A stretch of 64,000 nt of DNA from Bacteroidota bacterium (GCA_046301955.1 JBKCJE010000076.1:2902-66901); one strand, 5' to 3'. Shown: positions 22,565 to 27,365, numbered from the stretch's first letter. Numbers and translations are program-made. Notes: generated by a model not told the origin, from the sequence alone.

Positions 22565-22572
22565 TACCTTTG
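22565..22572 (+). promoter_or_regulatory. -7 promoter box TACCTTTG for wzx (near-leaderless spacing)
   Basis: TAnnTTTG ends 5 nt before ATG 22578. Confidence 0.45.
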
Positions 22573-22577
22573 TAATT

Positions 22578-24083
22578 ATGTCAGGGGTCATCGCCAAGAA
22601 TAGTTTTTGGGCTTCCATTGTGAATTACAGTGGTAGTTTGGTTGGCCTATTTACTACCTTTTACTTGTTTCCGTTGGTGTTTACTACCAGCGAGAATGGG
22701 GTTTTTCGCCTCTTTATCGAAATGGGGGCCCTGCTGGCAGGCGTTGCTCAATTGGGTACGGGATATTCCATTTGGAAGTTTTTTCCTCGGTTTAAGAGTG
22801 AAGACGGACATCATGGCGCCGGATTTTGGTTATTGGCCATTCCGCTCGTTGGGTTTGTTTTTGTAGCGCTTTTGTTGTTGTGGGGTCAGCCGTGGGTGGT
22901 TAAATATTTGATTGAGAACAGTTCCGATTTTCTGCCGTATTACCACTGGCTTATTCCATTTGTATTTTTCTTTGTTTTCAATACGGTTTTTGAGATTTTC
23001 CTGGCGGCCCTGGGCAACATTGTCTTTTCCTCGTTCTTGCGAGAAAATGTGGTAAGAATCCTGCTAGGGCTTTTGGGTTGGTGTTACTACATCGGCGTGG
23101 TAAATTTTGACCAAACCATGTATTCGATTTCCGCGGTTTACGGGGTCGTAATGCTCTTAAATTTTGTGTATTTGCTCAAGAATACGCGGTTGAGTTTTCA
23201 GCCCAATATGGGATTTATTCGCGAGCAAGAGGGACTTAAGGGCGAGTTTTATCGCTATACGGGTTACTTGTTTTTGACATATGTGGCGATGTTGGTTTTG
23301 CAACGCATGGATTTTTTGATGGTGAGTTCAATGAAGGGATCTGCGGATACAGGGATTTACGCCATCGCGGTGAATATGGCCGTTTTAATTGAAATTCCTA
23401 CGCGCAGTATTTTGCAAATTGCCAATCCCAAATTGTCAGAGGCCATTCATGCCGGTGATGATAAGGAAATTAAGCGCCTATATCAAAAAACCAGCCTCAA
23501 CCAATTCATTTTGGGCGCACTGGCGCTGCTGCTGATTTGGATCAATATCGATGTGTTTTATCACTACATGCCCAATGGACATCTTTATGAAACCGGTAAG
23601 TGGGCGGTGTTTTACCTTGGCGTGGGCAAATTGTGTGTGTTGTTGCAAGGCAATTCTTCTGCAATGCTTATTTTTTCGAAGCGATATTATTTGTCACTGC
23701 TGATCAATGGAATTTCTATTGTCGTTGGTGTTCTTCTCAATCAATATTTGATTCCTATTTATGGCATCAACGGCGCGGCATTGGCCACGGGCGGTGTTTG
23801 GTTGGCTTCGGGCATTGTGATGGCTGTGTTGATATATTCCGTATATGGTATGCAGCCCATCACGCGTGGAATATTAACGAGCGTTTTACTATTTGCGGGA
23901 TTGTTTTTACTCAACCACCTTTGGCCGGTGAATTCGAATTTCTTGTTGATTGGATCTTTGGGTAAATCGCTACTATTGATGGGTACAGCGATGTTCATTC
24001 TGCTGCGTTTCAGGTTGAGCGATGACGTCTACAGCATGGCCAAGAAAATGTTGGCACCCATTGGTATTCGGTTGAAAGACTAA
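22578..24083 (+). CDS. Oligosaccharide/polysaccharide flippase (Wzx, MOP superfamily)
   Basis: 501 aa with ~12-14 hydrophobic helices. The pattern is typical of polysaccharide-biosynthesis flippases (GIYAIAVNMA..., GINGAALATG). Converges on the nonulosonic-acid operon. Confidence 0.75.
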   Translation: MSGVIAKNSFWASIVNYSGSLVGLFTTFYLFPLVFTTSENGVFRLFIEMGALLAGVAQLGTGYSIWKFFPRFKSEDGHHGAGFWLLAIPLVGFVFVALLLLWGQPWVVKYLIENSSDFLPYYHWLIPFVFFFVFNTVFEIFLAALGNIVFSSFLRENVVRILLGLLGWCYYIGVVNFDQTMYSISAVYGVVMLLNFVYLLKNTRLSFQPNMGFIREQEGLKGEFYRYTGYLFLTYVAMLVLQRMDFLMVSSMKGSADTGIYAIAVNMAVLIEIPTRSILQIANPKLSEAIHAGDDKEIKRLYQKTSLNQFILGALALLLIWINIDVFYHYMPNGHLYETGKWAVFYLGVGKLCVLLQGNSSAMLIFSKRYYLSLLINGISIVVGVLLNQYLIPIYGINGAALATGGVWLASGIVMAVLIYSVYGMQPITRGILTSVLLFAGLFLLNHLWPVNSNFLLIGSLGKSLLLMGTAMFILLRFRLSDDVYSMAKKMLAPIGIRLKD

Positions 24084-24087
24084 TGAA

Positions 24088-25032
24088 TTAGTTTTTTTGG
24101 GAGAACTGTCCAAAGAAATCGCCCAGGCTCATTCGATCGAATGCATCTACGTAGCCACCTTCGGTTAGATTGATTACCTTCTTGTGGATGTGTTTTGCGT
24201 AGCGCGATGTTTCATCGTAACCCGTGTGCACTTTTACCAAACTATGAAACAATTCGTGGAGGCGAATCTTACCGGTTGTGCCATCCGCTTCTTGTTTCAA
24301 TAAAGGGTGTTTTTTGTTCTCGTCAGCATAAAAATGCGATTCAGTACGGATTATGGTGTTATCGGTGTCCACCATGATGTTGATGTGGAAGTCGTGATCC
24401 ACCCCGGTGATGAACACTTCCTCAAATCCTGAAAGCATCGCATTGAAAATGCATGAATTGACCACGTTTTCGCATTGTGGACTGCCCAAACGCCATTGGT
24501 ACATTCGGTTGCGGAAACCCGCTGTGCCGCCGATAACTGTGTAGTTGTAAGTGACGAATTGGATGTTGGGGTTGTTTAGGTTGTTAACGATATAGCAATT
24601 GCGGTACAGTTGGGGTACAAAGAAAATCATGGGCCAATCCACTTTTTGAAGCGCCTGCCATGTTTCATTGATCATTCGCTGTGTCTTTTCGAAGTCGGGT
24701 TTGTATTGTGCGATAGGATGCAAACCTGGATTCTCGAAAACCGCTTTTGAGAATTCGAAAAAATACAGATCTAACATCAAGTAATACTTGGGTTTCAGGC
24801 TGAAAAATTCGGGCTGACAGCTGAACTTGTTCACGGCAAAAAAGGCCAAACCCTGTTTTTTTAAGTTGTCGATTCCCACAGATGTGCATTTGTCGATGAA
24901 AGACCGTGCTGATGGTCCGTTGGCAATCACAACCACCGATTTTTCAGGTGCTGTATACGATGGGAGGTTGATCTTGCTCTTCAGCAGGATTTTTCCCATG
25001 GTGAGTGCCGATTGGAACAGGTCTTTTAACAT
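24088..25032 (-). CDS. Putative nonulosonic-acid (sialyl/KDN) transferase, uncharacterised GNGPS-motif family
   Basis: The ATG at 25032 overlaps the stop of the HAD phosphatase gene by 1 nt. VVVIANGPSARSF, FFAVNKF and VFITGVDHDF resemble the AGNGPS, CNQFYF and YLSGIDFY blocks of Cst-type GT42 sialyltransferases and of DUF115/Maf proteins. That comparison is from memory and no alignment was run. Confidence 0.45.
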   Translation of the reverse strand: MLKDLFQSALTMGKILLKSKINLPSYTAPEKSVVVIANGPSARSFIDKCTSVGIDNLKKQGLAFFAVNKFSCQPEFFSLKPKYYLMLDLYFFEFSKAVFENPGLHPIAQYKPDFEKTQRMINETWQALQKVDWPMIFFVPQLYRNCYIVNNLNNPNIQFVTYNYTVIGGTAGFRNRMYQWRLGSPQCENVVNSCIFNAMLSGFEEVFITGVDHDFHINIMVDTDNTIIRTESHFYADENKKHPLLKQEADGTTGKIRLHELFHSLVKVHTGYDETSRYAKHIHKKVINLTEGGYVDAFDRMSLGDFFGQFSQKN

Positions 25033-26606: not shown

Positions 26607-26610
26607 GCGA

Positions 26611-27351
26611 TTATTTTTGGTATTTGTTGATTTGATTTTCCATCAAAGTTACCCAACTTTTTTCACTTAGTAGCAGATTTCGCTGTGCGGGAAAGTCCAA
26701 ATGGGCAAGCTGTGGGTAGGTGCTGAGGCAAAAGTTCCAATCGTCTTGATCATCGATTGTGAGTCGGATTTGTTCAAATTGCGGTTGCCAGTCTTCTGGG
26801 ATGGCCAAGATGGCTATGGCGTATTGGTTTGGATTTTCATACAAACCGATGGTGACATGTTCATTGTACCAGGGGTTATTTTTTGGCACAAGCGATTGCA
26901 GTGCTGCGACTTTTACCGCCTCTACAAAAATGCCTGTGTGGTGTTTGATACCGGGTTTGCCTGCGTAACCGAATGAAATGTAATCCATCGTTGGGCGTAT
27001 TTCGCAGGCGGCCAAGGTTTGGTCAATGATGTAATGACTGAGATAGGGGTTGTCGGCACAAATGCGAAGCACAAAATCGTTTTCTGCGATACCAAAATGG
27101 GCTGCTGCTTCGGTGAAGCGACTCAGTACATGGGTCTCATCGCCCCGAAAAACGGAAATGCCGTGACGTTCTGCCATTTGAGCGAGTGAATCATCCGCGG
27201 GTTGTTTTGTCGTGAGGAGTACAGGGGTTACATCGTGGCTTGCAAGCCGAGCAATGACGGCCTCCAGCAAGGTTTTCCCATCCGGTAACAGCATGGCCAT
27301 TTTGCCGGGTAATCGCGAAGAACCCATACGGGCTTGGATGAACGCGTACAT
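26611..27351 (-). CDS. SpsF-type cytidylyltransferase (putative CMP-nonulosonate synthetase)
   Basis: The track start is TTG 27360. ATG 27351 gives MYAFIQARMGSSRLPGK (COG1861/SpsF-type motif). The promoter box at 27358 supports the ATG. Confidence 0.75.
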   Translation of the reverse strand: MYAFIQARMGSSRLPGKMAMLLPDGKTLLEAVIARLASHDVTPVLLTTKQPADDSLAQMAERHGISVFRGDETHVLSRFTEAAAHFGIAENDFVLRICADNPYLSHYIIDQTLAACEIRPTMDYISFGYAGKPGIKHHTGIFVEAVKVAALQSLVPKNNPWYNEHVTIGLYENPNQYAIAILAIPEDWQPQFEQIRLTIDDQDDWNFCLSTYPQLAHLDFPAQRNLLLSEKSWVTLMENQINKYQK

Positions 27352-27357
27352 GATTTT

Positions 27358-27365
27358 CAAAGGTA
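27358..27365 (-). promoter_or_regulatory. -7 promoter box TACCTTTG for the nonulosonic-acid operon (near-leaderless spacing)
   Basis: Minus-strand TAnnTTTG ends 6 nt before ATG 27351. Confidence 0.5.

Follow-up and report, generated by a model that had tools for sequence, protein, structure and literature searches.

A five-gene island in the genome of a freshwater Bacteroidota bacterium, with housekeeping genes flanking it on both sides, most likely produces KDN, a sialic-acid-like nonulosonic acid, by way of a phosphorylated intermediate, followed by its activation, its attachment to a lipid-linked glycan and outward flipping of the product. The island was analyzed within a stretch of 64,000 nucleotides (the window). 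It belongs to an abundant freshwater Bacteroidota population, its synthase occurring in 442 blocks of the contig collection. The 9-phosphate KDN pathway has been known from Bacteroides thetaiotaomicron since 2008 (Wang et al., 2008, as cited in PMC6200933 and PMC10483923), and curated models exist. What is new here is the candidate transferase and the swappable island. Since the biosynthetic chemistry is already known, the value of the locus lies in this transferase and in population-level variation rather than in the pathway.

Organization of the island

Four closely spaced genes occupy positions 24088-27351 on the minus strand. They encode, in order, a cytidylyltransferase of 246 aa (26611-27351 from its ATG start, or from 27360 if an upstream TTG is used), a synthase of 349 aa with NeuB and SAF domains (25557-26606), a HAD-IIIA phosphatase of 171 aa (25032-25547) and a DUF115/MptE-like (Maf-like) protein of 314 aa (24088-25032). 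A convergent gene at 22578-24083 on the plus strand encodes a Wzx-like, multi-pass membrane protein of the MOP superfamily (501 aa). Metagenome gene callers agree with the ORF calls of all island genes. The tight packing given in the preliminary description of this DNA is borne out by the ORFs and by direct reading of the junctions, which are TAA-tcgc-ATG between cytidylyltransferase and synthase (4-nt gap), TAA-acgcactcc-ATG between synthase and phosphatase (9-nt gap) and TGATG between phosphatase and the 314-aa gene (1-nt overlap). Direct reading also places the operon end as described, with 4 nt between the stops of the two convergent genes. The setting between housekeeping genes was likewise recovered in domain searches, which confirmed adk as a neighbor (224 bits) and identified the left neighbor as a gene for an Omp28/thioredoxin-like lipoprotein.

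The promoters proposed for the island stood only in part. On the minus strand, the octamer TACCTTTG (27358-27365) precedes the cytidylyltransferase ATG by 6 nt. It matches the Bacteroidota -7 box (TAnnTTTG), in line with the "consensus promoter" placed there, and implies a leaderless or near-leaderless transcript. A second, identical octamer (22565-22572, plus strand) precedes the flippase ATG by 5 nt, where the flippase was said to have its own promoter. On the other side, no sigma-70-type site was found at 27358, and TAnnTTTG is statistically unremarkable in the window, with 59 matches against 49 +/- 7.8 expected. Because the motif is not enriched, a function of the box at 27358 is read from its position only.

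The stated absence of a NeuC-type epimerase, a ManNAc kinase and Pse/Leg genes holds among the window genes examined. NeuC, NanE, NanK and Pse/Leg dehydratases or aminotransferases were not found among the called genes of the L001 and L088 stretches, which cover smaller ORFs there, and the scanned window ORFs of at least 250 aa, which are all but a few that overlap or adjoin annotated genes. Flagellar genes were also not found in this set.

Probable synthesis and activation of the sugar

The phosphatase is a HAD protein of the KdsC type by domain search, with the nucleophile motif DxDG present as DIDGV. The earlier suggestion that it resembles B. thetaiotaomicron BT1713 rather than a KDO-8-P phosphatase proved correct. 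The protein scores 264.6 bits on the NCBIfam KDN-9-phosphatase equivalog NF058599 (cut-off 180), on which BT1713 itself scores 262.7 bits, and shares 64% identity with BT1713. In a search of the PDB, it matched 3E81/3E8M at E=1e-62, against 6e-34 or weaker for KDO-8-P phosphatases. The residues E56 and K67, which are those mutated in PDB 4HGQ and 4HGR, are kept, whereas R and S stand at the aligned positions of the KDO-8-P phosphatase 3MN1. A KdsC identity was rejected on the weaker PDB matches and on the score of 126.5 bits on the KdsC equivalog NF007019, under its cut-off of 208. These data support a predicted KDN-9-phosphate phosphatase equivalent to BT1713.

The synthase carries a NeuB domain (PF03102, 216.7 bits) and a SAF domain (PF08666). 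It is 63% identical over 344 aa (450 bits) to the BT1714-type NeuB-family protein that adjoins BT1713 in a B. thetaiotaomicron-like locus (L007), and its homologues at 71-76% identity carry the JGI name KDN-9-P synthase. An ordinary NeuB or PseI identity was rejected, since the protein falls under the cut-offs of both NeuB_NnaB (259 vs 399.65) and PseI (198 vs 340). The BT1714-type protein of L007 fails the same two cut-offs, and the best solved NeuB, PseI or SpsE reaches at most 127 bits against the window synthase, so the enzyme groups with BT1714. Its predicted role is that of a BT1714-type KDN-9-phosphate synthase (EC 2.5.1.132; Man-6-P + PEP), and a phosphorylated product is implied by the dedicated 9-phosphatase gene that adjoins it across the 9-nt gap.

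Which sugar phosphate would the synthase use? Man-6-P and ManNAc-6-P use look alike at the sequence level, and the substrate is drawn here from characterized relatives, which suggest a preference for Man-6-P. The animal-like block noticed earlier in the synthase exists as described: PHSFGKTYGEHREKLEL can be aligned to NSYGDTYGAHREFLEF of the Prymnesium enzyme, which is specific for Man-6-P. The synthase also aligns, at 33% identity and including the block YxSxHSxGKTYGEH, with what we take to be the human NANS sequence. The loop block held in common with this presumed NANS sequence would suit an animal-type route from ManNAc-6-P through Neu5Ac-9-P and Neu5Ac to CMP-Neu5Ac, or a mixture of products, with the ManNAc-6-P genes elsewhere in a genome that was inspected over 64 kb. 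Human NANS is a dual-substrate enzyme that uses ManNAc-6-P and Man-6-P alike (PMC6200933, Table 2). The Kdn-9-P synthetase of Prymnesium parvum is specific for Man-6-P and rejects ManNAc-6-P (PMC6200933). The Neu5Ac route is very unlikely, given that KDN enzymes are the closest characterized relatives, that no ManNAc-6-P epimerase or kinase was found among the window genes examined, and that the enzyme rejecting ManNAc-6-P shares 63.5% identity with the synthase of another cassette at this locus.

The cytidylyltransferase belongs to CTP_transf_3 (PF02348, 60.9 bits vs cut-off 22.6), and its best solved relative is 6OEW (E=3.6e-16). Its gene fills the same slot as in B. thetaiotaomicron, being 31% identical over 188 aa to the L007 gene immediately upstream of the BT1714-type synthase. 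The order cytidylyltransferase-synthase-phosphatase recurs in three other Bacteroidota loci, namely L007, Leadbetterella and a Sphingobacteriales MAG. From its fold and this conserved slot, we infer that the SpsF-type enzyme is a CMP-KDN synthetase. Similarity to the characterized P. parvum CMP-Kdn synthetase is weak (30% over 110 aa, E=4e-5); the protein is only remotely related to any characterized CMP-KDN synthetase, which counts against the KDN reading.

Cassette variation at the locus

At the same chromosomal site in related genomes, other nonulosonate cassettes were found, all with a DUF115 gene and a flippase. In L020 and L021, whose flanks are identical, the synthase is swapped for one that is 63.5% identical to the Kdn-9-P synthetase of P. 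parvum and the cytidylyltransferase for one with 41% identity to the CMP-Kdn synthetase of that alga. Retained are a KDN-9-P phosphatase (254 bits) and the DUF115 and flippase genes. Thus the same partners are served by two unrelated pairs of enzymes, each linked experimentally to KDN. This haptophyte-type KDN cassette includes a methyltransferase, and another cassette at the site encodes a legionaminic-type pathway. In L019, the DUF115 and flippase genes stand without nearby biosynthesis genes. The island is best explained as a single allele at a hot spot for nonulosonic-acid cassettes, located between adk and an ECH/PAP2 flank in a lineage of freshwater Bacteroidota.

The candidate transferase and the putative flippase

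The protein first listed simply as a transferase candidate can now be described as a stand-alone DUF115/Maf-like protein. Its only Pfam match is PF01973, at 20.3 bits, below the gathering score of 34.6. The same family is matched by 19 of its 20 family members at E<=0.01, and the L020 homologue reaches 35.1 bits. A sequence search of the PDB returned no match. The AlphaFold2 model (pLDDT 87.3) has the Maf glycosyltransferase 5MU5 as its top Foldseek match (E=7.5e-6, probability 1.00, with a modest TMq of 0.42). GNGPS-like and G-x-x-I-Y-x-x-G-(I/V)-D motifs resemble what we assume to be the Cst-II sequence. Membership in the GT42 sialyltransferases was rejected, as Pfam gave no such match and no GT42 structure (Cst-I/Cst-II) is among the 50 Foldseek matches listed. 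The Maf/PF01973 domain has itself been called GT42-like, and Maf proteins transfer Neu5Ac and Kdo (bioRxiv 10.1101/2020.06.03.131540).

Comparative genomics also points to nonulosonic acids. DUF115 orthologues with at least 54% identity adjoin KDN genes wherever the contig permits, except in L019. L019 counts against this reading, and so do most of the distant homologues in gut Bacteroidales, which lack a NeuB gene within 8 kb. At the hot spot, the DUF115 gene accompanies three chemically different cassettes, with identities of 100%, 42% and 38%. From fold and comparative genomics, the protein is a candidate CMP-KDN-dependent glycosyltransferase. It could instead be an MptE-like diphosphokinase, another nucleotide-binding enzyme or a sugar modifier, with the KDN transferase encoded elsewhere: the sub-threshold Pfam match is to the MptE-like family, the second and third Foldseek matches are to a pterin diphosphokinase, the HPPK of M. 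jannaschii, and the PDB sequence search was empty. Such a role is quite unlikely, as a Maf glycosyltransferase is the top fold match, the gene tracks the three cassettes and diverges in step with them, and the island holds no glycosyltransferase besides this candidate.

The flippase assignment holds only through homologues. The 501-aa protein matches nothing in Pfam or NCBIfam, even at E<=10, and a profile search of the PDB gave no match. It has 5102 homologues, and PF01943 (Polysacc_synt) is matched by 25 of the 31 full-length ones (E<=1e-47 to the window protein); a further 5 match MatE and 4 match Polysacc_synt_3. The name Wzx used earlier is therefore sustained by relatives and not by a direct family match. 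The protein is a putative MOP/Wzx-like flippase of a lipid-linked, KDN-bearing glycan.

Alternatively, this protein may be a general glycan flippase that merely lies next to the KDN genes. Its gene is convergent and has its own upstream motif, it is still 87% identical in L020 where the DUF115 gene is down to 42%, and it is present in L019, which is without biosynthesis genes. Mere adjacency is nevertheless somewhat unlikely, because the flippase is kept beside the DUF115 gene in every cassette variant at the locus, and the Leadbetterella and Sphingobacteriales loci with the cytidylyltransferase-synthase-HAD order also hold a membrane protein the size of a flippase, or a Polysacc_synt gene.

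Comparison with known systems

In B. thetaiotaomicron, the same three enzyme families are found in the same order, with identities of 64% (phosphatase), 63% (synthase) and 31% (cytidylyltransferase). The triad of B. thetaiotaomicron presumably lies in a large capsule locus, as in Leadbetterella and Sphingobacteriales, whereas the window holds a five-gene, housekeeping-flanked island that also encodes a DUF115 protein and a convergent flippase of its own. BLASTP detected no similarity between the four module proteins and the product of the gene that lies downstream of the phosphatase in L007.

The haptophyte P. parvum uses the same chemistry, in which Man-6-P and PEP yield Kdn-9-P before CMP activation, and its synthase has the loop motif in common. 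However, that synthase is only 31% identical to the window synthase and is without a SAF domain, and the haptophyte cytidylyltransferase is NeuA-like, unlike the SpsF-type enzyme of the window. The true bacterial counterpart of the haptophyte pair is the L020/L021 cassette (63.5% and 41%). The animal NANS/NANP/CMAS pathway likewise proceeds by way of a 9-phosphate and employs a HAD phosphatase of its own. This phosphatase is of a different family, the NeuA-type CMAS carries a degenerate C-terminal domain resembling KdsC (3EWI), and the main substrate of the pathway is ManNAc-6-P.

Maf (PF01973/DUF115; 5MU5) is the best structural match of the DUF115 protein and belongs to the Pfam family common to its homologues. 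The genes of both are linked to the synthesis of CMP-nonulosonates. At about 600 aa or longer, Maf proteins have extra flanking domains and act directly on Ser/Thr of flagellin, whereas the window protein is essentially the core domain, paired with a flippase of lipid-linked glycans. With 314 aa and no flagellar genes found among the window genes examined, the predicted function is that of a Maf-like core and not of Maf proper. In Tannerella forsythia, also of the Bacteroidota, strain-specific nonulosonic acids cap a Wzx-flipped glycan in general O-glycosylation (PMC5420450). The T. forsythia Pse/Leg transferases are 442-445 aa, TagB/GT-B-like and unrelated to DUF115.

Proposed pathway and its meaning

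In the proposed pathway, the BT1714-type synthase would condense mannose-6-phosphate and PEP to KDN-9-phosphate, with its family established and its substrate suggested by characterized relatives. The BT1713-type phosphatase, assigned by family and specificity residues, would strip the 9-phosphate. The SpsF-type enzyme, judged by fold and gene slot, would form CMP-KDN. On fold and comparative genomics, the DUF115/Maf-like protein would then, at the membrane's cytoplasmic face, add KDN to a glycan with CMP-KDN as the donor, and the convergent MOP/Wzx-like protein would flip the lipid-linked product. The acceptor glycan and the initiating enzymes would be encoded elsewhere. The module, once called self-contained, is so only as far as synthesis of the donor, a single transfer and flipping are concerned, and not for the acceptor glycan.

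As far as we know, no bacterial KDN transferase has been identified by experiment. It is possible, although we hold it only tentatively, that stand-alone DUF115 proteins form a so far unrecognized class of Bacteroidota nonulosonic-acid transferases acting on lipid-linked glycans rather than flagellin, and that a fixed hot spot swaps donor-synthesis cassettes while keeping a scaffold of transferase and flippase. To our knowledge, such a class would include the first bacterial KDN transferase family. The cassettes observed at the hot spot are a B. thetaiotaomicron-type KDN cassette, a haptophyte-type KDN cassette with methyltransferase and a legionaminic type, and the 63.5% synthase identity to Prymnesium would further suggest that haptophyte algae and Bacteroidota recently exchanged genes. 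In environmental biofilms and sludge EPS, KDN is a regular finding (PMC10483923), yet it is considered uncommon in characterized bacterial glycans (PMC9000132). The island offers a minimal, cleanly bounded five-gene system for a candidate KDN transferase, a KDN-bearing surface glycan and cassette swapping, and this swapping at one locus may reflect pressure from phages or grazers.

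Identity of the Phosphatase, Synthase and Cytidylyltransferase

Family membership of the phosphatase and of the synthase supports the reading of the five-gene island (about 22565–27365) as a KDN module; for its other three genes, the support comes from context. The KdsC-like HAD phosphatase (25032–25547, minus strand) reaches 264.6 bits against the NCBIfam model for KDN-9-phosphatase, the equivalog NF058599 (cut-off 180), and 126.5 bits against the KdsC equivalog, which is under the cut-off of 208. BT1713, the Bacteroides thetaiotaomicron KDN-9-P phosphatase on which NF058599 is based, scores 262.7 bits on this model and is 64% identical to the window phosphatase. 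It was also the top match among solved structures (3E81/3E8M, E=1e-62), with KDO-8-P phosphatases at E=6e-34 or weaker. The mutant structures 4HGQ (E56A) and 4HGR (E56A/K67A) of BT1713 mark two positions; both residues, E and K, are retained there in the window protein, and R and S are found in 3MN1, a KDO-8-P phosphatase. The likeness to BT1713 rather than to KDO-8-P phosphatase, suggested in the preliminary description, is thus borne out by model score, structure match, identity and residues alike.

The NeuB+SAF synthase (25557–26606, minus strand) falls under the cut-offs for N-acetylneuraminate synthase (259 vs 399.65 bits) and pseudaminate synthase (198 vs 340 bits), and the best solved NeuB, PseI or SpsE reached at most 127 bits against it. 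The BT1713 coding sequence, taken from the supplement of PMC6200933, was traced through the same protein in the contig collection to a 2.6-kb Logan contig (L007). A single residue separates the phosphatase of this contig from BT1713, and the synthase encoded beside it is therefore BT1714, the KDN-9-P synthase of B. thetaiotaomicron, or a near-identical allele. The gene order in L007 is cytidylyltransferase, a 346-aa NeuB+SAF protein and phosphatase. Its BT1714-type protein is 63% identical to the window synthase over 344 aa and is likewise sub-threshold for N-acetylneuraminate synthase (239 bits) and pseudaminate synthase (196 bits). Homologues at 71–76% identity to the window synthase carry the JGI name KDN-9-phosphate synthase.

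The synthase had also been likened to animal synthases at the block PHSFGKTYGEHREKLEL. This block pairs with KHSWGKTYGEHKRHLEF in human NANS and with NSYGDTYGAHREFLEF in the enzyme from Prymnesium parvum, so that the resemblance holds; in Bacillus subtilis SpsE, the alignment is gapped here. Of seven sugars, Man-6-P was shown to be the sole substrate of the P. parvum Kdn-9-P synthetase (PMC6200933). Three synthase homologues (P0011, P0022 and P0044) are named 'shikimate dehydrogenase' in several NCBI records, apparently through a misannotation that has been passed on.

The CTP_transf_3 cytidylyltransferase (26611–27351, minus strand) has the PF02348 fold. Among solved structures it is closest to 6OEW, a cytidylyltransferase that is itself uncharacterised. 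It resembles the characterised CMP-Kdn synthetase of P. parvum weakly (E=4e-5), and it is 31% identical to the product of the gene upstream of the BT1714-type synthase in L007. This slot upstream of the synthase is kept in L007, in Leadbetterella and in a Sphingobacteriales MAG; in the latter two, the same triad lies within full capsule/EPS loci that include export proteins and several other glycosyltransferases. The assignment as a CMP-KDN synthetase is made because of the fold, the conserved slot and the cassette swap at the locus, discussed in the next section. The three biosynthetic steps are very probably those of the KDN route.

Cassette Exchange at the Same Chromosomal Site

The five window proteins and their flanking genes were compared with 80 loci encoding homologues of the 314-aa DUF115 protein (24088–25032, minus strand). 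Loci L008–L019 encode its orthologues (54–100% identity). Wherever the contig reaches, except in L019, the genes for these orthologues are preceded by those for the same phosphatase, synthase and cytidylyltransferase. They are convergent with the gene for the same flippase candidate, and the site has adk as one flank and lipoprotein, ECH and PAP2 genes as its second. In related genomes this site has four different contents, with the DUF115 and flippase genes present in all four.

In L020 and L021, the cassette at this hot spot contains a methyltransferase, a 314-aa NeuB without SAF (L020:5855–6799; 63.5% identity to P. parvum Kdn-9-P synthetase), a cytidylyltransferase (L020:6801–7484; 41% identity to P. 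parvum CMP-Kdn synthetase) and a KDN-9-P phosphatase equivalog (254 bits). The DUF115 protein is 42% and the flippase 87% identical to that of the window. L022 has a legionaminic-type set composed of a DegT aminotransferase, ATP-grasp, NeuB+SAF, PIG-L, a NeuC-like 2-epimerase, GNAT, a CBS-nucleotidyltransferase, a cytidylyltransferase and a 4,6-dehydratase (DUF115 protein 38%, flippase 58%). In L019, the biosynthesis genes are absent and a T9SS-type 776-aa protein is found in their place, with the DUF115 gene (54%) and the flippase kept. Two unrelated synthase/cytidylyltransferase pairs, both tied to KDN by experiment, therefore occur with the same phosphatase, DUF115 protein and flippase, which supports KDN as the product. 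The identities of the L020 proteins to the P. parvum enzymes suggest that genes may have been exchanged fairly recently between Bacteroidota and haptophyte algae.

Changes of the nonulosonate cassette are accompanied by divergence of the DUF115 gene, which stays with the cassette, the pattern expected of a donor-specific transferase. An obligate link between DUF115 and nonulosonates is spoken against by L019 and by the 25–32% identical DUF115 homologues from gut Muribaculaceae, Bacteroides and relatives, most of which lack a NeuB gene within 8 kb. In L070 (Duncaniella muris DSM 103720) and most of L025–L086 (gut Muribaculaceae, Bacteroides and Prevotellaceae), there is usually neither a NeuB nor a cytidylyltransferase gene within this distance; the L070 homologue adjoins a UDP-glucose dehydrogenase gene.

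Candidate Transferase and Flippase

The family of the 314-aa protein is small. A word-indexed search gave 21 matches, and an alignment-based scan found it in the genomes of 120 species, nearly all of them Bacteroidota. The match of the window protein to PF01973 (MptE-like, DUF115 or Maf_flag10) is weak (20.3 bits), but 19 of 20 family members match PF01973. PDB sequence searches with the single sequence and with the family profile returned nothing meaningful, and only structure comparison worked. An AlphaFold model built from the family alignment was confident (pLDDT 87.3, pTM 0.86). Its top PDB fold match was the Magnetospirillum Maf glycosyltransferase 5MU5 (E=7.5e-6, TMq 0.42), followed by the archaeal MptE diphosphokinase; no GT42 structure was among the 50 fold matches listed. 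The family alignment contains an N-terminal IIANGPS, G-x-x-I-Y-x-T-G-V-D-H and an invariant H-x-Y, with H233, Y235 and D212/H213 invariant. We take these motifs to resemble those of Cst-II.

The PF01973 domain of Maf proteins is described as a GT-A fold in modified form, with kinship to the GT42 sialyltransferases, and Maf proteins were shown to transfer Neu5Ac and Kdo (bioRxiv 10.1101/2020.06.03.131540). The 314-aa protein has the Maf core fold, yet it is not a Maf, because it lacks the flanking domains of Maf proteins and no flagellar genes were found near its gene. The identity of a Tannerella forsythia-type TagB-like transferase was rejected, as the TagB-like family is unrelated. Two DUF115 homologues of 462 aa (P0138 and P0139; 33% identity to the window protein) have a C-terminal GNAT acetyltransferase domain, which hints at coupled sugar transfer and acetylation.

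The 501-aa multi-pass membrane protein (22578–24083, plus strand) had been called a Wzx. It has no Pfam or NCBIfam match of its own even at E<=10, and a PDB profile search gave no match; the Wzx type stands through its homologues. An exhaustive search found 5102 of these, and 25 of 31 full-length homologues match PF01943 (Polysacc_synt), with matches of others to MatE or Polysacc_synt_3. By homology, the protein is a divergent member of the MOP superfamily of the Wzx type, and would act in flipping. The roles of the DUF115 protein as transferase and of the 501-aa protein as flippase are somewhat favoured, with clearly less assurance than the biosynthetic steps.

Organization and Genomic Surroundings of the Island

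The layout of the island was confirmed as first described, as gene calls and junctions agree: 4-nt and 9-nt gaps, a 1-base TGATG overlap and convergent stops 4 nt apart. The same gene calls were made by independent callers on metagenome contigs with an identical synthase. At 24081–24090, TAAtgaaTTA holds the two convergent stop codons. An intergenic terminator does not fit into their 4-nt spacing, and either each transcript must end within the opposing gene or the transcripts must collide.

A consensus promoter had been placed at 27358. The octamer TACCTTTG at 27358–27365 (minus strand) matches the Bacteroidota -7 box TAnnTTTG 6 nt before the cytidylyltransferase ATG, and an identical octamer lies at 22565–22572 (plus strand), 5 nt before the flippase ATG. 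The window has 59 occurrences of TAnnTTTG, where chance would give 49 +/- 7.8, so only the position of the octamer, and not its presence, is suggestive. A scan for sigma-70 promoters and terminators, ill-suited to Bacteroidota promoters, gave fewer matches than shuffles and none at 27358. If the octamers function as -7 boxes, both transcripts would be nearly leaderless.

The island lies between an Omp28/thioredoxin-like lipoprotein gene (21514–22452, minus strand) and adk (27423–27995, plus strand). A horizontally acquired, compositionally odd island was rejected on GC content (0.43–0.48 vs 0.44–0.50 in the flanks). The DNA comes from an uncultured freshwater Bacteroidota. A Columbia River MAG encodes a protein 100% identical to the 314-aa protein, and the closest relatives are labelled Flavobacteriales or Bacteroidota; the synthase sequence is present in 442 blocks of the contig collection.

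The right-hand region of the window was annotated by Pfam. Outside the island, the genes that were examined have housekeeping functions or code for surface proteins. The former encode succinate dehydrogenase, DnaJ/GrpE, RpoD, FeoB, AdoHcy hydrolase, a type II topoisomerase B subunit, and molybdenum-cofactor synthesis and tRNA modification enzymes. The statement of the preliminary description that ManNAc-supplying and Pse/Leg enzymes are missing held among the genes examined, and no initiating transferase or polymerase was found among them.

The KDN pathway itself is already known, with a curated NCBIfam model and an EC-numbered JGI name, and was reportedly described in B. thetaiotaomicron by Wang in 2008. 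Neither a stand-alone DUF115 protein as candidate KDN/nonulosonate transferase nor the swapping of entire nonulosonate cassettes at a single conserved locus was found in the literature searched. On its own, the module provides for donor synthesis, a single transfer step and flipping. The acceptor glycan must be supplied from elsewhere in the genome. Two T9SS cargo proteins of about 1500 aa (32831–37339 and 57231–61721) have PKD repeats and T9SS C-terminal sorting domains (CHU_C, Por_Secre_tail), and a small Por_Secre_tail protein is encoded at 28731–29429. Such T9SS-type surface proteins are possible carriers of O-glycans.
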